DNA of 46,011 nucleotides from Candidatus Yanofskybacteria bacterium RIFCSPHIGHO2_01_FULL_44_24 (GTDB lineage Bacteria > Patescibacteriota > Minisyncoccia > 2-02-FULL-40-12 > GWA2-44-9), in contig MGJK01000003.1 in assembly GCA_001794215.1 (NCBI GenBank), positions 1-46,011 of the forward strand, in the 5' to 3' direction. Shown piece after piece: positions 2,420 through 37,361 of this stretch. Every line of letters starts with the position of its first letter. The first letter of the stretch is position 1. A program made the translations under genes and the position numbers. The notes beneath the pieces were generated by a model. The model ran no database searches and had not been told where the DNA came from. It worked only from the letters and a program-made list of their open reading frames with translations.

Positions 2420-3076
2420 TTATGTCGTCGGAGTTGGAGATGGTGACGGGCTAACAGATGGGGACGGACTTGGCGACGGTTTCGGTAAAGAGTTCATCGC
2501 TTTTCTCGCGTCAACTAATGCCCGATGAACATTCTTTATCTTGTCTCTGATCTCTTCGACAAGTTGTTTAACTTTTTTTAGAGCTTCTTTTGGTTCATTA
2601 TTATTTATGAGGCTCTCGACTTGAGCAGTTCCATCCTGAATCATCTTCGCGGTGTCATCGATCATTTTCACGGCATCATCAAGTTTCTTCTTGACTTCGG
2701 TAACGTCGACGCCTCGAGCGGCTAACTTATTAAGCTTCTTCCTGAGGTTATCAGCCAATCTTCTTTCGTTTCTGAGTAAAACCTCAAGTCGATGCATCAT
2801 TTTTCTCCAGAATTTTCTAACTTCTTCTTTTCTCTTTTCTAATCTCTTCGCCTCTCTTTCATCCTTTTTTTCTTCCTTCTTCTGATCTCTCTCTTCTTTT
2901 CTTTCTTCTTGTTTCTGTTTATTTTCCTGCTTTCTCTCAAGAGCTCTTTCCCTTGCAGTCGGCGAAGCCGACGGTGAGGGTGAGGGCGTCGGCGAAACCG
3001 TCTGAGCACTTACGGACAATCCCGACAAAAGAAATGCTGCCATTATGACGGCGGCTGTGTAATTGTGTTTTTTCAT
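2420..3076 (-). CDS. Secreted coiled-coil protein with Pro/Ser linkers
   Basis: Signal peptide (..VSA-Q), PSPSP tracts at both ends, K/E-rich helical core. Confidence 0.75.
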   Translation of the reverse strand: MKKHNYTAAVIMAAFLLSGLSVSAQTVSPTPSPSPSASPTARERALERKQENKQKQEERKEERDQKKEEKKDEREAKRLEKRKEEVRKFWRKMMHRLEVLLRNERRLADNLRKKLNKLAARGVDVTEVKKKLDDAVKMIDDTAKMIQDGTAQVESLINNNEPKEALKKVKQLVEEIRDKIKNVHRALVDARKAMNSLPKPSPSPSPSVSPSPSPTPTT

Positions 3077-31477: not shown

Positions 31478-32650
31478 ATGAACCAGCTTTTAGAAAGAGG
31501 CGTAGAAGAGATTATAGAAAAAGAACATTTAAGGGCCCGCTTGGATAGGGGCGACAAGCTCAGGATTAAACTCGGGATTGACCCCACCGCACAAGACCTC
31601 CATTTAGGCCACACCGTGGTCTTAAGAAAACTTAGGCAGTTTCAGGATGCCGGTCATCAGGCCGTTTTTATTATCGGTGATTTCACCGCTACCATCGGAG
31701 ACCCTTCTGGTCGCAACGAATCAAGGCCAGCCTTATCGGAAAAAGATATTAAAGATAATATGAAAAATTATCTTAATGAGGCGGGTAAGGTTATTGATTT
31801 AAAAAAGGCGGAAATTCACCACAATTCTGAGTGGTACAAGAAAAAAGACACCGGTTTCTTGATGGAGCTGGCCAGTAAGTTTACGGTAGCGCGGATGATG
31901 GAGAGGGATGACTTTCAAAAAAGGCTCAAAGACGGTCAGGACATAAGCCTTCTCGAAATATTGTACCCTATACTGCAAGGGTATGATTCATTTGCCGTAA
32001 AGGCTGATCTGGAATTAGGCGGTACCGATCAAAAATTTAATCTTTTAACCGGGAGGAAGGTTCAGAAAAGATACGGCCAGGCAGAGCAGGACGTGATGAC
32101 CATGGTTCTTATCGAAGGTTTGGACGGATCAAAAAAGATGAGCAAGAGTTTAGGGAATTATATAGGCCTCTCGGAAAGGCCGGAAGATATGTTCGGAAAA
32201 ACCATGTCGTTGCCGGACGTACTAATGCCCAAGTACTTCAGTGTTCTAACCGATGTTCCAGATGAGGAGATAGACCGACTTAAAAAAGATTTAAATAGTC
32301 AAAATTCGAGCGGCCAGTCGCTTAAAGGATGGAAGGAGAGGTTGGCTTATGAGTTAGTAAAAATATATCACGGAGAAAGAGAGGCGAAAAAAGTTCGGGA
32401 CGAATTTAATAGAGTTTTTTCTAAAAGGGAGATACCGGAAGATGTTAAAGAATGGAAGACGGGTGGCGACAGCGGTATCGTAGATATTTTAGTAGATTCT
32501 GACTCGGTAAAATCCAAAACAGAAGCCAAGAGACTTATAGACCAGAAAGCCTTATCGATTAACGGTCACACTATTACTGATTGGGATTTCAAGGTAAAAA
32601 AGGGCCAAGTGGTAAAAATAGGTCCGAGAAAGTTCTTGAAAGTATTGTAA
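31478..32650 (+). CDS. tyrS: Tyrosyl-tRNA synthetase
   Basis: GIDPT..LHLGH, QGYD, GGTDQ, KMSKS, C-terminal S4-like domain. Confidence 0.97.
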   Translation: MNQLLERGVEEIIEKEHLRARLDRGDKLRIKLGIDPTAQDLHLGHTVVLRKLRQFQDAGHQAVFIIGDFTATIGDPSGRNESRPALSEKDIKDNMKNYLNEAGKVIDLKKAEIHHNSEWYKKKDTGFLMELASKFTVARMMERDDFQKRLKDGQDISLLEILYPILQGYDSFAVKADLELGGTDQKFNLLTGRKVQKRYGQAEQDVMTMVLIEGLDGSKKMSKSLGNYIGLSERPEDMFGKTMSLPDVLMPKYFSVLTDVPDEEIDRLKKDLNSQNSSGQSLKGWKERLAYELVKIYHGEREAKKVRDEFNRVFSKREIPEDVKEWKTGGDSGIVDILVDSDSVKSKTEAKRLIDQKALSINGHTITDWDFKVKKGQVVKIGPRKFLKVL

Positions 32651-32682
32651 ATTTAAATCGCCCCGGCCGGGGCGATTTAAAT
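32651..32682. terminator. Perfect 32 bp palindrome, likely bidirectional terminator
   Basis: atttaaatcgccccggccggggcgatttaaat between convergent genes. Confidence 0.7.
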
Positions 32683-32685
32683 CAG

Positions 32686-32892
32686 TTACCAGCTATTTCC
32701 TTCATCTTCGTCTCCGGCCACTGGATCGCTCTCGTCATTAAGATCGGGGTCGTCCATCTCACTGTCATCCTCCTCGTCATCATCCTCTTCTATCACAGGT
32801 TCGACCGGGTCACCATCGAGACCGCCATCTTCTATAGACATCGTTTTCCAGAACAGACTGTCCATAAATGGGTTTTCTTTGCCTGTCCCCAT
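32686..32892 (-). CDS. Small highly acidic protein
   Basis: 27 of 68 residues are D/E; AAGGAG upstream; own promoter and terminator. Confidence 0.6.
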   Translation of the reverse strand: MGTGKENPFMDSLFWKTMSIEDGGLDGDPVEPVIEEDDDEEDDSEMDDPDLNDESDPVAGDEDEGNSW

Positions 32893-32967
32893 CAGCTCCT
32901 TAGGGATCAGATAAGAGATCGGGCAAATAAGCTTATTTATATTATTATATTACAAAAATCATCCTCA

Positions 32968-32995
32968 ATTGTATTTATGTGGATAACAATGTCAA
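32968..32995 (-). promoter_or_regulatory. sigma70 promoter with a DnaA box in the spacer
   Basis: TTGACA-N16-TACAAT on the minus strand; TTATCCACA at 32978-32986. Confidence 0.75.
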
Positions 32996-33140
32996 CCCCT
33001 CACTTGAGGAAGGATAGGTTCTGCGGCAGCAAAGTCTTGTGGGTGAGGATTAATAAATGAACTAATCTATAATTCATAGACTTGGCTATTATACAGAACA
33101 ACTACTTTGCATATCCTTGCTGTATTACGGGGTCAACCCC
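32991..33140 (-). mobile_element. Palindromic element A (MITE/PATE-like)
   Basis: Homologous over its length to 35326-35474 in inverted orientation, with 28 bp identical; direct repeat gtcaacccctcac at 32991 and 33132. Confidence 0.7.
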
Positions 33141-33600
33141 TCACGGATGAAGCGCAACAAACCGCAATTGCTAAGGCGTCGGCGGCATCGTCCGGTTTAA
33201 TGTCGGTAGTAATTTTTAATATCAGGCGAACCATATTTTGAACTTGTTTTTTCTCCGCTCTGCCGTAATTGGTAATTGCTGACTTTATTTCCAGGGGGGT
33301 GAACTCGTAAAATGGCAGTCCGCTGTTTTCTATGGCCCAAAGCATAACCCCCCTCATTTGGGCTACCGGTATGGCGGTCTTTTGGTTCTTGAAGAAGAAC
33401 AGTTTTTCGACGGCAACCGCGTCGGGCTTGTATTTATTTATAATTTTAGAGACCTTATCCGCTGCATCTTTATATATTCCAGGTCCTTTGCCTGTGTTTT
33501 TTAAAATACCGTAAGCTAAACAAGACAGATTGTTTCCATTTGATTCTACGACCCCGAAACCGATACGAGTTATACCAGGATCAATGCCCAGGATTATCAA
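33133..33600 (-). CDS. ruvC: Holliday junction resolvase RuvC
   Basis: ILGIDPG, AVEKLFF, YGRAEK, DDAADALAIA. Confidence 0.96.
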   Translation of the reverse strand: MIILGIDPGITRIGFGVVESNGNNLSCLAYGILKNTGKGPGIYKDAADKVSKIINKYKPDAVAVEKLFFFKNQKTAIPVAQMRGVMLWAIENSGLPFYEFTPLEIKSAITNYGRAEKKQVQNMVRLILKITTDIKPDDAADALAIAVCCASSVRG

Positions 33601-33603
33601 ATA

Positions 33604-33687
33604 AATTTCTAATTTCTAATTTCTAATTTCTAAAAATAATAGTCTGGTAATAAATTTTAGAATAATTAGCTTGATTAGAATAATTAG
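33604..33687. repeat. Periodic repeat element between yebC and ruvC
   Basis: (AATTTCT)x4 at 33604-33631 facing TTAGAATAA-type repeats at 33657-33687. Confidence 0.8.
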
Positions 33688-33688
33688 G

Positions 33689-34201
33689 TCAATTCTCCGC
33701 AAGGTTAGAGATTACGTCCTCGACTTCTTCCTGATCATCGAGAGCTTCAAATAGAAGATCGATTTTATCTCTCACAGATTCATCCGGGGCAGTAAATTGT
33801 TCGTCAAGCATCCAGCCTATACTGCCGGGCGGAACCATCTTACTTTCATGTTCGCTGAGTATATTTTTAATATCGGCAACAGTTCTATTTCTGTTGTCGG
33901 TAATCGCCTTTACACGCATAGCTATTCCGCCGGGTCCAATCCCGTCGATTATCAGCTCTTCTAATTGAGCCGAGGATTTATCGGCCGCTTTCTTTATCGC
34001 CCGCGCTATATTGTCGTTCGGAACATTCATTGCTCGAGCCTGGTCTATCGCTTGAGACAGGGCGGCGTTGGATTTCGGGTCAGTGCCTTTTTTTGCCGCA
34101 AGAGTTATCGCCCTCGATATCTTAGAGAAAAGCTGTCCTCGTTTTTTATCAGTAACGGCTTTTTTGTGTCTGATCTGGGCCCACTTAGAGTGTCCGCTCA
34201 T
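33689..34201 (-). CDS. yebC: YebC/PmpR-family protein, short form
   Basis: MSGHSKWAQIRHKK, GPGG, TDNRNRT, V..VISN; 170 aa. Confidence 0.92.
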   Translation of the reverse strand: MSGHSKWAQIRHKKAVTDKKRGQLFSKISRAITLAAKKGTDPKSNAALSQAIDQARAMNVPNDNIARAIKKAADKSSAQLEELIIDGIGPGGIAMRVKAITDNRNRTVADIKNILSEHESKMVPPGSIGWMLDEQFTAPDESVRDKIDLLFEALDDQEEVEDVISNLAEN

Positions 34202-35247
34202 AGCAGTGTATTTTTAATTCCAAGATGTTTTAGGCCTTGAGCGGTGATAACCCGGCCCTTTGGTGTCCGGGCTATTAACCCGATCCTCAGCAGATACGGT
34301 TCATAAACATCTTCGATGGTGCCCTCTTCTTCCGATATGGAGGCAGCGATAGATTTAAGTCCTACGGGACCGCCGGCAAACTTGTCTGCGATAGCGTGCA
34401 TAATTTCTCTGTCTGTTTTTTCAAGTCCTCGGTCGTCTATCTCGAGCATGGCTAAGGCCTTTTTTGCGGCCAAAGCGCTTATGGAAGTTTCCTCATCCGT
34501 CATTTGGCTATAGTCCCTTACTCTTTTGAGCAGGCGGTTGGCTACCCGGGGAGTGAATCGTGATGCCTGTGAAATAATGCTTACCGCCTCTTTGTCCGTA
34601 TCTATACTGAGCAATTTAGCCGAGCGGTTGACGATTCTTTCTATGTCTCCCTGATTATAAAAATCCAGCCTCAAATTAGCTCCGAAGCGAGATCGAAAAG
34701 GGGATGAGAGCATTGATATCTTGGTCGTAGCGGCGATAAGGGTAAACCGAGGCAGGTCTATCTGAAGAGTCTTAGCCGAATTGCCTTTACCGATGACTAT
34801 ATCAAGTTTAAAGTTTTCCATTGCCGGATAAATAACCTCCTCAACGGCTTTATTCAGCCTATGGACCTCATCTATAAATAAAATATCCCCGTCGCTTAGG
34901 CCGGTAAGTATTGAGCCGACATCCCCGGCTTTTTCAAGGGCAGTGCCGGAAGTAATTTTAAGATTTGCTCCCAGTTCCTTGGCTATAATATAAGCAAGAG
35001 TCGTCTTGCCTAAGCCGGAGGGGCCGTGAAGCAGAAGATGCTCGATAGGTTCCTTTCTTTTCTTAGCCGCTCCGATAAGTATCTTAAGATTTTCTTTTAT
35101 CTTATCCTGGCCGACATACTCATCAAAGTTGGAGGGCCTTAGCGCGCGGTCAAGAACCTGATCGTCCAAGGTCGGCTTCGGAGCAACTTCTTGCCGGCCG
35201 GCCGTAGAATTATTTGATCCCGGATTGTCGTGTCTCTTAATTTTCAT
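34198..35247 (-). CDS. ruvB: Holliday junction branch migration helicase RuvB
   Basis: LRP..F..YVGQ, GPSGLGKTT, FIDEVHR, TPRVANRLL, GGPVG, EPYL. ATG 35247 preferred over 35298, which lies in a hairpin. Confidence 0.96.
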   Translation of the reverse strand: MKIKRHDNPGSNNSTAGRQEVAPKPTLDDQVLDRALRPSNFDEYVGQDKIKENLKILIGAAKKRKEPIEHLLLHGPSGLGKTTLAYIIAKELGANLKITSGTALEKAGDVGSILTGLSDGDILFIDEVHRLNKAVEEVIYPAMENFKLDIVIGKGNSAKTLQIDLPRFTLIAATTKISMLSSPFRSRFGANLRLDFYNQGDIERIVNRSAKLLSIDTDKEAVSIISQASRFTPRVANRLLKRVRDYSQMTDEETSISALAAKKALAMLEIDDRGLEKTDREIMHAIADKFAGGPVGLKSIAASISEEEGTIEDVYEPYLLRIGLIARTPKGRVITAQGLKHLGIKNTLL

Positions 35248-35325
35248 ATAAGATTCCAACCCGACAGAGGTCTCGCTCGCCCCATAGAGGCGAGTCATAA
35301 GACCTCGGCGAGGCTATCTCTAACG

Positions 35326-35474
35326 GGGGTTGACCCCGTAATACAGCAAGGATCGGCAAAGCAGTCATTCTGTCCTATATGCCGGTTCTATCTAATCATC
35401 TACGCTTGATAATCTGGACTATCAGTTAGTCTTTGCTTATGCAGAATATATCCTTGCTGATATGCGGGGTTGAC
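35326..35474 (+). mobile_element. Palindromic element B (MITE/PATE-like)
   Basis: Arms ccccgtaatacagcaaggat / atccttgctgatatgcgggg; ggggttgac at both ends; homologue of element A. Confidence 0.7.
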
Positions 35475-35498
35475 ATTCATTTTAATTTAGATTACAAT
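35470..35498 (+). promoter_or_regulatory. sigma70 promoter with no downstream ORF
   Basis: TTGACA-N17-TACAAT. Confidence 0.75.
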
Positions 35499-35504
35499 AT
35501 GCAC

Positions 35505-35688
35505 GGATCATAAGCCTCAAAACCCATTTAATCTGTAGGCAATTGGGTAGGTGTTGTCACGCAGACCCAACAGGGATACTGTCTTAGTTCGGATAGTTTG
35601 GTTCCGACTGAACTACTCCTCGGAATTATCCTATCCCGCGTTTTGTAAATTCGGGCCTTTGCCTACAGATTAAAGGGGTTTTATGTTT
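35505..35688 (+). ncRNA. Candidate structured RNA (6S-like size) or further palindromic element
   Basis: 16 bp perfect stem tttaatctgtaggcaa/ttgcctacagattaaa plus aaaaccc/gggtttt closing several inner helices; follows a near-consensus promoter. Confidence 0.45.
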
Positions 35689-35699
35689 AAAAAGTGCTT

Positions 35700-37361
35700 T
35701 TAGCCGAATACTCTCTCAAGCTCTTCCAGCGAAGTGATGCCTTCAAGAAGTTTCAAGTATCCGTCTTGAACCATCGTGACCATACCCTCGCTTACCAGAA
35801 GTTCATTAACTTCAGAAATCACCATTGGCCGGCTCATCAGCTTTTCTAATTCTTTAGATACCGAGAAAACCTCAAACGATCCTAAACGGCCGGAATATCC
35901 AAGGTGGCTGCATTCAGCGCATTGTCCCGGGTAGTATATTTTTAGAGACGAGCTCAAGTCGGGGAATTTTATCCGACCACTGATCGGTTCAAGGATCTTT
36001 TTAATTTTTGTAAGATCACCGGGGCTTACTTTCTTTAATATTTTGCATGATCCGCAGAGTTTTCTAATTAATCTTTGGGATATTACCAAATTCAAAGCCG
36101 GGGCGAGTATTTCCGGTTTCACGTGAAGATCTACCAGGCGGGGGATGGCTCCGGCGGCGTTGTTAGCGTGAATGGTTGATAAAACAAGGTGACCGGTCAA
36201 ACTCGCGTTCAGAGCTATATCGGCCGTTTCCATATCGCGTATTTCTCCGACTAAAATAACGTCCGGATTTTGCCGCATTATTATCTTGAGTCCGTTGGCG
36301 AATGTGTAGTTTTTGGCCGGATCAACCTGGCTTTGAGATATACCTTGAATATGATATTCAATCGGATCTTCAATGGTTAGGATTTTAGTTTTTGAAGAGT
36401 TTATGTAGTTTACAAAAGCATAAAGAGTGGTCGTCTTACCGGCTCCGGTCGGGCCGCTTACCAAGACCGTGCCGGTATTTATCTTAAGTTTTTCTTTTAT
36501 AAAATCGAGGATGTCTTTGCGCAGTCCAAGATCCTCGAGGGTGCCTCTTACGGTGAAGGGGTCAAGGATCCTCATTACTACGGTTTCGCCGAATTCGCTC
36601 GGTAAAATTGATATCCTCAAGTCGACGTTGTTATTATTCTTTTGTCGAACGCTGAACCGGCCTTCTTGGGGTCCATGGACATTTAACTTTAGCTTGGAAA
36701 GGATTTTGATCCTGTTTAAAATCTTATTGTAGTAGTCGTGATCAATAGTGGCTACATCGTAAAGAATTCCATCAAGTCTGTAGCGCAGGCGGGCAGTGGT
36801 TCTCTCCGGTTCAAAATGTATATCCGAAGCCCGTGTCTTTAGAGCTCCTGCCATTAAGATTTCGAGTAGTTTGGTGACCGATACATTGGTTATTTTTGAT
36901 TTCAGGTCAGCAATGGTTTTTATTTCATCTTCAAGTCTGGAAAGCTCTTCCTCGTCTATCTCGATTGCTCCGACTTCGAACACCTGAGGACGTTCGGAGG
37001 ACTTGTATCTTGCCCAGACGCGCTCCAAAGCCTCGGGGGTCGTTATCATTATTTCAAGGTTAAGTCCGGGTTTTTTAAGCGATTCAATGGTCTTTTGAGT
37101 GGCTGGGTTTGAGGGGTCAGTGACGGCGATGATCAGCTTTGAGGCGGTTTTGTATAAAACGGCCAGATTGGAGCTTCTGGCGGTATCTTCGTTTATAACA
37201 TGAAGAGCATCGCGATCTATCGGAACGCCTTTTAGATTGGAAAATGGCAGATTCAGGCCGGAAGCTAAAGAGTGGTACTTTTCCTCAGATTCTTTTACCG
37301 CAATATCCTGCAGTTTTTTCTCGAGTTCTTCTTCTTTTGTTCGGATTTGAGAGGGAGCCAT
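35700..37361 (-). CDS. GspE/PulE/PilB-family secretion/pilus assembly ATPase
   Basis: ASDIHFEP, GPTGAGKTT, TIEDPIEY, RQNPDVILVGEIRD, TGHLVLSTIH, two CxxC motifs. Confidence 0.93.
   Translation of the reverse strand: MAPSQIRTKEEELEKKLQDIAVKESEEKYHSLASGLNLPFSNLKGVPIDRDALHVINEDTARSSNLAVLYKTASKLIIAVTDPSNPATQKTIESLKKPGLNLEIMITTPEALERVWARYKSSERPQVFEVGAIEIDEEELSRLEDEIKTIADLKSKITNVSVTKLLEILMAGALKTRASDIHFEPERTTARLRYRLDGILYDVATIDHDYYNKILNRIKILSKLKLNVHGPQEGRFSVRQKNNNNVDLRISILPSEFGETVVMRILDPFTVRGTLEDLGLRKDILDFIKEKLKINTGTVLVSGPTGAGKTTTLYAFVNYINSSKTKILTIEDPIEYHIQGISQSQVDPAKNYTFANGLKIIMRQNPDVILVGEIRDMETADIALNASLTGHLVLSTIHANNAAGAIPRLVDLHVKPEILAPALNLVISQRLIRKLCGSCKILKKVSPGDLTKIKKILEPISGRIKFPDLSSSLKIYYPGQCAECSHLGYSGRLGSFEVFSVSKELEKLMSRPMVISEVNELLVSEGMVTMVQDGYLKLLEGITSLEELERVFG

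Follow-up and report, generated by a model that had tools for sequence, protein, structure and literature searches.

The Correia elements, closest analogues of the elements described here, duplicate a TA target and contribute to -10-like boxes. Also called CREE or NEMIS, they are promoter-associated miniature inverted-repeat transposable elements (MITEs) of Neisseria (PMC2649163). Two other systems come close, i.e., the MITEs derived from insertion sequences (IS), e.g., MITEAba12 of Acinetobacter (PMC6382973), and the REPINs and REPs that go with RAYT (Y1 HUH) transposases (PMC3337134, PMC3116915). The DNA considered here is a stretch of 46,011 nucleotides (the window), i.e., contig MGJK01000003.1 (C3) of Candidatus Yanofskybacteria bacterium RIFCSPHIGHO2_01_FULL_44_24, whose genome (G000) comprises 970,849 bases in 20 contigs and is 99% complete. 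Two related elements, A and B, lie in this window in inverted orientation, on either side of the genes ruvC, yebC and ruvB.

Like the Correia elements, the elements of the present family measure roughly 100-150 nt, are non-coding and intergenic, and have inverted ends, a short target duplication and hairpin potential. In both cases the ends and the duplicated target give promoter hexamers, and the Correia elements affect neighbouring genes. The differences are that (i) the present family duplicates 4 nt, mostly TTGA, and rebuilds an existing -35 box; (ii) its arms are far more variable; (iii) two conserved crossing helices are found inside it; (iv) its host has an ultra-small genome. This comparison is one of descriptions and not of sequences. 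With the IS-derived MITEs the family shares its non-autonomous nature, inverted ends, a target-site duplication, presence or absence according to the strain and mobilisation in trans, which would also apply here. However, IS-derived MITEs share their ends with a known parent IS, and the search of G000 and of the relatives examined yielded none. As for the REPINs, they are not known to have flanking target duplications and cluster around the RAYT gene. The likeness to them lies in the hairpin-forming doublets of about 100 nt, the long life in lineages and the single-copy Y1 gene in the genome; the difference lies in the 4-nt duplication found here and in a RAYT gene flanked by a different palindrome family. 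No description of MITEs in the candidate phyla radiation/Patescibacteria, nor of MITEs targeting -35 boxes, was found in the literature searched.

A and B are probably two independent insertions of a non-autonomous transposon with terminal inverted repeats, MITE-like and about 135 nt long. The corresponding features are the following (positions in the window).

32968..32995, minus strand: right TTGA of A (32995 to 32992) with the -35 hexamer TTGACA, a 16-nt spacer and the -10 hexamer TACAAT, i.e., the predicted promoter of an acidic-protein gene
32996..33132, minus strand: body of element A, 137 nt, from CCCC to GGGG, matched by the covariance model (CM) R1 with 149 bits
33133..33136, minus strand: left TTGA duplication at A, the last three bases of which are the ruvC stop codon TGA
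33113..33140, no strand assigned: 28-nt stretch made of the element 5' arm and the flanking GGGGTTGA, exactly complementary to 35326-35353
35330..35333, plus strand: left TTGA duplication at B (filled site in G000, empty site in G001)
35334..35469, plus strand: body of element B, 136 nt, an intact hairpin with 18 Watson-Crick arm pairs, matched by R1 with 131 bits
35470..35498, plus strand: right TTGA of B with the -35 hexamer TTGACA, a 17-nt spacer and the -10 hexamer TACAAT, i.e., the predicted promoter of a non-coding RNA (ncRNA) candidate
35470..35480, minus strand: apparent relic of the ancestral ruvB start (ATG AAT GTC AA...), separated from its gene by B
35505..35690, plus strand: structured RNA candidate of about 170 nt, between pilB and ruvB and antisense to both

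Comparisons were made with the 61 genomes of the order (G000 included), with 150 other genomes across the phylum and, for the ruv locus, with eight relatives. The genomes sampled in the order and the phylum measure 0.4-1.2 Mb. The initial annotation had linked mobility to the existence of empty sites carrying a single copy of the target. Such sites were found when three loci were compared between G000 and G001, which belong to the same genus. At site B, G001 reads ...GGGGCTTGACATTCAT...TACAAT, with a single TTGA and no element; G000 reads the same, except that TTGA, the element and a second TTGA replace the single TTGA. At site A, TTGACAT-N-TACAAT is present just after ruvC, without element, in G001 and in G006. 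The third locus is the reverse case: an element stands between two TTGA in G001, and G000 (contig C2, near 43.2 kb) has one TTGA, which lies inside a TTGACC hexamer followed by a -10-like hexamer. Since the empty sites carry a single TTGA and the filled sites carry two, the elements behave as insertions with a 4-nt duplication. Each of them has its own duplication, which argues for two independent insertions and not for a bracketing pair. Over the family, identical 4-nt flanks are found in 23 of 28 copies: TTGA in 18 of them, and TCAA, TTAG, TGAG, TTCA and TTTA in one each.

It had been suggested that A and B are non-autonomous hairpin elements with further copies elsewhere; a dispersed family was indeed found in G000 and its relatives. 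The nhmmer and CM searches give six full copies in G000 (A, B, C6:40211-40358, C6:6155-6311, C11:3896-4043 and C20:18990-19142), with pairwise identities of 53-86%, and a 3' half-copy abuts the C6:40211 copy. Inspection by eye adds a seventh copy on C16, with other flanks (CAAG), and decayed fragments on C6 near 6035 and on C12 near 115452. The family thus comprises at least seven copies in G000, plus fragments. R1 was built from the alignment A2 of G000 copies, with the TTGAC flanks included. It matches 13 of the 61 genomes of the order, G000 included; when G000 is left aside, the matches by family are 8/36 (f1), 2/8 (f2), 2/8 (f3) and 0/8 (f4). Only 1 of the 150 other genomes of the phylum is matched, under stricter filters and with fewer candidates scored than in the search of the order.

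The end pattern TYRACCCCGYNCTT was considered in five relatives. It has 4-18 sites in four of them vs. 0-1 for the reversed control, G005 having up to 18 element ends. Paired ends never lie more than about 130 nt from each other, and in some cases the pair amounts to a mini-palindrome of about 34 nt. The unpaired ends, once fetched and read, belong to short, decayed or contig-end copies and not to a longer element. The 28 copies measure 61-148 nt. Each copy starts with CCCC and ends with GGGG, and its outermost roughly 20 nt are the terminal inverted repeats. Inverted ends, a duplication of fixed length, small non-coding units in several copies and empty alleles, i.e., the characters by which MITEs are recognized, are all found. 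A BLAST search of B against phage and plasmid collections gives no match. An exact-pattern scan of the genome collection was discarded: among the matches listed, the hits are single, mostly due to chance and located in unrelated high-GC genomes; also among them, a repeat of one Betaproteobacteria metagenome-assembled genome contains the pattern and is a different element.

The exact 28-bp reverse complement between 33113-33140 and 35326-35353, already noticed in the initial annotation, corresponds to alignment columns 21-48, which are invariant. The similarity reported beyond these 28 nt is also real: the inverted match reaches 48 nt at 90% (33093-33140 with 35326-35373), and the second arm pair of A and B is 78% identical over 50 nt. 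Over their whole length, A and B are 70% identical over 152 nt (BLAST) or 68% (96/142, global alignment of the bodies); their ends are conserved and their middle, roughly 55 nt, is not. The end motif common to both elements, GGGGTTGAC, occurs five times in the window, vs. 0.15 expected (five or more occurrences in 0 of 100 shuffles), and four of these five sites are element ends, i.e., all four ends of A and B. The description of each element as a long hairpin is correct for B and fails for A. The DNA fold of B reaches -21.8 kcal/mol (z = -3.9; equally good shuffles 0/200), that of A -12.4 kcal/mol (z = -1.2; equally good shuffles 22/200). The arms of A are an exception within the family, with 14 of 20 positions paired; A has no convincing hairpin because its two arms derive from different subfamilies. 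A search of 32600-35900 against Rfam 15, at E up to 10, returns chance-level rows only, the elements and the ncRNA candidate being unmatched, and the single open reading frame (ORF) that overlaps A matches no Pfam family.

Taken together, the arms of the 28 copies have 497 Watson-Crick positions, with 51 mismatches and 24 gaps. The mismatches include 15 G-T and 14 A-C, with no strand bias. This absence of an excess of G-T over A-C fits inverted repeats maintained in double-stranded DNA.

The outward TTGACA/TACAAT pairs with 16- and 17-nt spacing, also part of the initial annotation, are the two best promoter-like sites in 32500-35900, each with 11/12 matches; the total number of such sites there is not elevated (6 vs. 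5.8 expected from shuffles). Transcription is predicted to start near 32961 (minus strand) and 35505 (plus strand). The claim that the elements create these promoters has to be abandoned, since the site B promoter is present in 8/8 relatives (without element, except in G012) and the site A promoter in 2/8 (G001 and G006). The duplicated TTGA at A and B is made of the first four bases of the pre-existing -35 hexamer TTGACA. Together with the old flank, the right TTGA copy restores TTGACA, the spacing to the -10 hexamer being unchanged, so that the core promoter survives; the DNA upstream is displaced by about 140 nt. Among the 18 TTGA-flanked copies, 15 (counted by eye) have a -10-like hexamer 16-18 nt past the rebuilt hexamer; to be counted, it had to carry A at position 2 and T at position 6 and to match the -10 consensus at 4/6 positions or more. 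Elsewhere in G000, GGGGGTTGACT at C20:52746 (minus strand) is followed by TATAAT at promoter spacing and has no element; it seems to be a target of the type preferred by the family that has stayed unoccupied.

The insertions also affect the neighbouring genes. The overlap of A with the ruvC stop codon, previously reported, is exact: the ORF ends at 33133, and its TGA (33135 to 33133) lies inside the TTGA adjoining A, so that ruvC owes its stop to the left duplication at A. The C-terminus of RuvC is different in every relative. At site B, an in-frame ATG leading into RuvB is found at the position of the relic in 6/8 relatives (by eye), i.e., not in G001 or G004. It has the form ATG(A/G)ATGTCAAG in G011, G006, G015, G014 and G007, and ATG AAT GTC AAT in G012 when its element is removed. 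This ancestral start stretch is the complement of the -35 box of the ncRNA promoter. Element B comes directly after GTCAA in G000, and the ATG is cut off from ruvB by an element in G000, G012 and G053. From these alignments, B appears to have split the ancestral ruvB start codon; the ATG being severed, ruvB must start further in (in G000, at 35298 or 35246).

An unfiltered CM search of the ruv loci of the eight relatives gives one element, at site B of G012 (E = 1e-4), the next hit having E = 0.44. In G012 and G053, too, an element occupies the TTGA of site B, the flanks of the element loci mapping to the pilB-ruvB gap. The arms of the G012 element are unlike those of B; those of the G053 element are different again, and its internal orientation is opposite. 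Such different arms and orientations point to site B as a hot spot, hit repeatedly and independently in three genera, and not to one old insertion.

The ncRNA candidate next to site B is present in 9/9 genomes compared. Compensatory changes are seen in 22 of its 60 predicted pairs, and the plus strand is the one indicated by G-U pairs that do not vary. It comprises a long closing stem, the 10-bp core of which is invariant, and, inside, three hairpins. No Rfam match is obtained for it, either at the gathering score or at E up to 10. It is predicted to be transcribed from the putative promoter at B.

The 4-mers, variable between copies and yet duplicated, suggest a staggered-cut (DDE-type) transposase acting in trans. 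Such an enzyme would make 4-nt staggered cuts with a preference for TTGA(C), and would be encoded outside G000. The promoter-preserving geometry of the insertions would explain their persistence in a very compact genome. Duplications of 4 nt are known from ISfinder for the IS5 group, IS701, IS1380 and IS407; this was not used as evidence.

Several observations weigh against a plain MITE. The main weakness is that no transposase with matching ends was found. The search for a parent IS covered PF01609, PF00665, PF01548 and PF07282 in five genomes each and the end pattern in five, the metagenome collection being left out. DDE_Tnp_1 is unmatched in four of the five genomes (G000, G035, G015 and G053), no end pairs at IS-size spacing are found in the five, and the ends of the only rve-type IS in G000, TGACACCCAAAT..., are unrelated. 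Moreover, (i) the exact 4-nt duplication is missing in 5 of the 28 copies; (ii) the sampling is biased, R1 including the TTGAC flanks and the end pattern fixing TYRA, so that the counts overstate how far TTGA predominates among the duplications; (iii) the arm sequences vary greatly among copies, even inside one genome, and remain complementary within each copy, a divergence that would be unusual if one protein read the arm sequence; (iv) the six full copies of G000 share one orientation relative to TTGA; (v) the expected rate of -10-like hexamers, about 8% per site, comes from hand arithmetic and not from a computed genome-wide background; (vi) the crossing, covarying helices described below are not predicted by a plain cut-and-paste MITE.

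The rve-type IS just mentioned (locus L086, G000:C12:16354-19629; positions 1097-2441 of the locus) encodes a 412-amino-acid transposase, weakly IS481/IS3-like and below the NCBIfam cut-offs. It has 14-nt perfect inverted ends and splits an apparent methyltransferase gene (ORFs 400-1101 and 2425-3012). A 9-nt likeness between its ends and the arms of the copies in G053 was put down to chance. IS110-type transposases and TnpB have no match in the five genomes.

Inside the elements, two inner 6-bp helices covary, i.e., GCAAAG with CTTTGC and RTTCTG with CAGAAY. They were tested on a subfamily of 13 copies from G000, G026, G012 and G053. Three helices, these two among them, are 97.4% paired, vs. 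35-50% with slid partners; seven pairs change on both sides, and the score is reached in 0 of 500 shuffles. The two inner helices cross (pseudoknot order) and cannot both fit in a simple hairpin.

These helices, together with the choice of targets, may be accounted for by an element homing to promoters. Its machinery would recognise the -35 motif TTGAC(A), or promoter DNA held by RNA polymerase, and would insert in such a way that the promoter is rebuilt; the pseudoknot-like core, with its crossing helices at the base of a long stem, would mean that the element moves or acts as folded single-stranded DNA or as RNA, through an enzyme class new to such elements. This proposal is speculative and rather unlikely.

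A less probable reading, unlikely in our opinion, is that of a functional structured nucleic acid (RNA, single-stranded DNA or cruciform signal) selected next to promoters, the mobility being secondary or long past. The covariation of the three helices, two of them crossing as in a pseudoknot, speaks for it, as do the 18-19 of 20 arm pairs retained by copies that are only 53-86% alike, the distribution over three families of the order and the occupation of the pilB-ruvB locus in three genera. However, presence or absence, with duplications, is observed at three orthologous sites of two congeneric genomes, and tandem, half and mini copies exist. The upstream and downstream neighbours of the copies are each found on either strand, according to a crude table of nearest ORFs, and B has no co-oriented upstream gene and no visible promoter of its own. 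In addition, the arms show no G-T excess (15 vs. 14), no Rfam family is matched and no terminator-like T run comes after the hairpin. A terminator function was rejected separately on this last ground.

The MITE-like reading must also be compared with a movement as single-strand hairpins of the IS200/IS605, PATE or REPIN type, in which a RAYT would cut after TTGAC and insert 3' of TTGAC without duplication. The IS200/IS605 elements and PATEs have a separate subterminal hairpin at each end, are not known to make a duplication and need TnpA (Y1). The likeness consists of a short motif beside hairpin DNA and of an insertion at a specific short target; the same pentamer is found at both ends of most copies, each of which is a long hairpin, and tandem copies have one GGGGTTGAC in common. 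The single orientation of the six G000 copies relative to TTGA, and internal covarying helices that suit a single-stranded intermediate, go in the same direction. G000 encodes one Y1/RAYT-like protein of 237 amino acids (PF01797, 8.6e-10; NCBIfam REP_Tyr_transpos, 2.5e-11, below the cut-off of the model). Nevertheless, the kinship with IS200/IS605 put forward in the initial annotation is not retained. Either side of a given copy has the same flanking 4-mer, but the 4-mer varies between copies (TCAA, TTAG, TGAG, TTCA and TTTA in five of them, and CAAG, by eye, for C16), which means a target-site duplication and not a fixed cleavage motif. The two ends of an element pair with each other instead of forming separate subterminal hairpins, and no TnpB is found in the five genomes. 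Y1 matches are not co-distributed with the element: they are found in 9 of the 13 genomes with the element vs. 24 of the 48 without it, and the four element genomes devoid of a Y1 match include G015 (100% complete) and G053 (98%). Finally, the palindrome that borders the RAYT gene and recurs within it is a different one (GTTTGGAGGT..ACCTCCAAAC), and no element of the A/B family adjoins this gene. Kinship with Y1 systems is therefore decidedly improbable.

The RAYT-like gene is on the minus strand of locus L047 (G000:C13:22511-24721; positions 1240-1953 of the locus), and its 23-nt palindrome is found on both sides of it and inside it. With 8 sites in G000, this palindrome is a second and separate repeat family.

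Large serine recombinases of the TnpX/TndX style, moving the elements as small circles, are a very improbable explanation. The GGGG-TTGA-CCCC joint, with its 20-nt arms, would be the site, and the targets would be joint-like. Indeed, the empty site B (GGGGCTTGAC) resembles an element end plus its flank, tandem copies have a single common GGGGTTGAC, and the orientation is uniform in G000. Candidate enzymes are numerous: all five genomes examined encode large serine recombinases, between 3 and 8 per genome and 5 in G000. However, the six duplicated 4-mers fit a staggered cut better than the exchange of a fixed 2-nt core, and the five G000 enzymes are 30-59% identical or unrelated, none adjoining an element. 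Around one serine recombinase ORF (57359-58978), at G000:C11:56346-58954, there are two pairs of inverted repeats, roughly 100 nt long and 98-99% identical. One pair overlies the gene at its 5' and its 3' end, and the segment may be invertible.

Other known modules were rejected in a simpler manner. Tn3-type miniature elements (5-nt duplication, GGGG ends) do not fit, the right end here not being CCCC, and pdif-type Xer modules do not fit since each element has its own empty site. The attC sites of integrons have ends, RYYYAAC and GTTRRRY, that are mutually reverse complementary, and they form co-oriented cassette arrays next to intI. The present elements are like them in that structure is conserved over sequence, with conserved short ends, a variable centre and a similar length; they differ by direct TTGA(C) repeats, by dispersed copies and by a single Xer-like tyrosine recombinase in each of the five genomes examined. 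They were not assigned to attC on these grounds.

The last and by far the weakest explanation, that of the initial annotation, is that A and B are recombination sites of an invertible 2.2-kb ruvC-yebC-ruvB cassette, flipped by a recombinase or by homologous recombination over the 28 nt; it is extremely unlikely. In its favour stand the perfect 28-nt inverted repeat with copies 2.2 kb apart, the 5' arm of A, apparently converted by B, so that the copies interacted, and the recombinases encoded by G000, i.e., 5 of the large serine type and one Xer-like tyrosine recombinase. Against it, the order and relative orientation of PBP, tyrS, ruvC, (yebC), ruvB and pilB are unchanged in 8/8 relatives: ruvB, (yebC) and ruvC are co-oriented with pilB in all of them, seven of which are without both elements. 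A flip would moreover detach the operon from whatever enters ruvB from the pilB side, and A and B each come with a duplication and an empty site of their own.

A single orientation is also found in two metagenome runs, X1, which may be the source sample, and X5, from another study, the evidence at read level being Logan contigs, which conceal rare variants. Contigs 32653-33628 and 33608-35469 cross A and the inner part of B in the reference orientation, although a rare inversion could escape such contigs. No strand-changing joint is listed among the contig joints of X1 and X5. The contig break at 35445-35469 coincides with the arm of B to which a stretch of contig C6 is 98% identical. Some « skip » joints were given no weight, their sides measuring 20-31 letters and touching the 33603-33634 repeat or the conserved RNA.

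The 28-nt identity probably has another origin. A is mosaic: in the 5' arm, 20/20 positions agree with B vs. 14/22 with the C20 copy, its middle is 75% like C20 vs. 58% like B, and its 3' arm is 90% like C20, C6b and C11 vs. 75% like B. B is not mosaic. A being mosaic and B not, the transfer would have been one-way, from B to A; a reciprocal crossover with inversion, which predicts a mosaic B, fails to explain it. We infer that the identity between A and B probably results from gene conversion of the 5' arm of A by B, 2.2 kb away.

The genes concerned and their neighbour are the following.

33133-33600, minus strand: ruvC (Pfam RuvC, 2.6e-46)
33689-34201, minus strand: yebC (Pfam TACO1_YebC_N, 6.2e-27)
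34198-35247 or 34198-35298, minus strand: ruvB (Pfam RuvB_N, 1.3e-70)
33133..35298, minus strand: ruvB-yebC-ruvC block between insertions A and B
32686..32892, minus strand: gene of a 68-amino-acid acidic protein, downstream of the promoter at A

YebC is short (170 amino acids), the Pfam model for its second and third domains being matched over the first 55 of 160 positions only. This short form aligns across 166-169 residues in 6/8 relatives; yebC is undetected in the other two (G011 and G004). A small acidic ORF is found, by eye, at the position of the 68-amino-acid gene in 8/8 relatives. The acidic protein matches no family in the Pfam search, and scores of only 0.81-0.83 in the protein atlas provide a weak lead to Minisyncoccota. 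A perfect 32-nt palindrome (32651-32682) is located between the convergent tyrS and acidic-protein genes. Since the relatives carry a different G+C-rich palindrome there, it is probably a two-way terminator.

The ruvC-yebC gap contains a tandem AATTTCT repeat (33603-33634), for which the summed contig depth reaches at most 18002, with many loose ends. Its depth is very high in all four metagenome runs. It is evidently a short low-complexity repeat common to many organisms of these samples. At the gathering score, Rfam gives five tRNAs over the window and nothing else; tRNA-Pro(CGG), at 2204-2275 on the plus strand, is called by ARAGORN, the Rfam tRNA model being silent at that score.

What looked like an invertible ruv cassette thus leads to a MITE-like family, so far undescribed, in bacteria whose genomes are very small. 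Two features are worth following up, i.e., the preference for the -35 box and the conserved crossing helices. Because of the preference for the TTGA(C)A of -35 boxes, each copy marks a probable promoter in organisms that cannot be cultured, and it is element B that pointed to a conserved, unannotated candidate gene for a structured RNA between pilB and ruvB. Insertions of this family would reshape genes in compact genomes, the ancestral ruvB start being apparently severed (independently in three genera) and the ruvC stop codon being supplied. If the choice of the target is mechanistic and not a survivor effect, this would be an unusual transposon, homing to promoters and repairing them.

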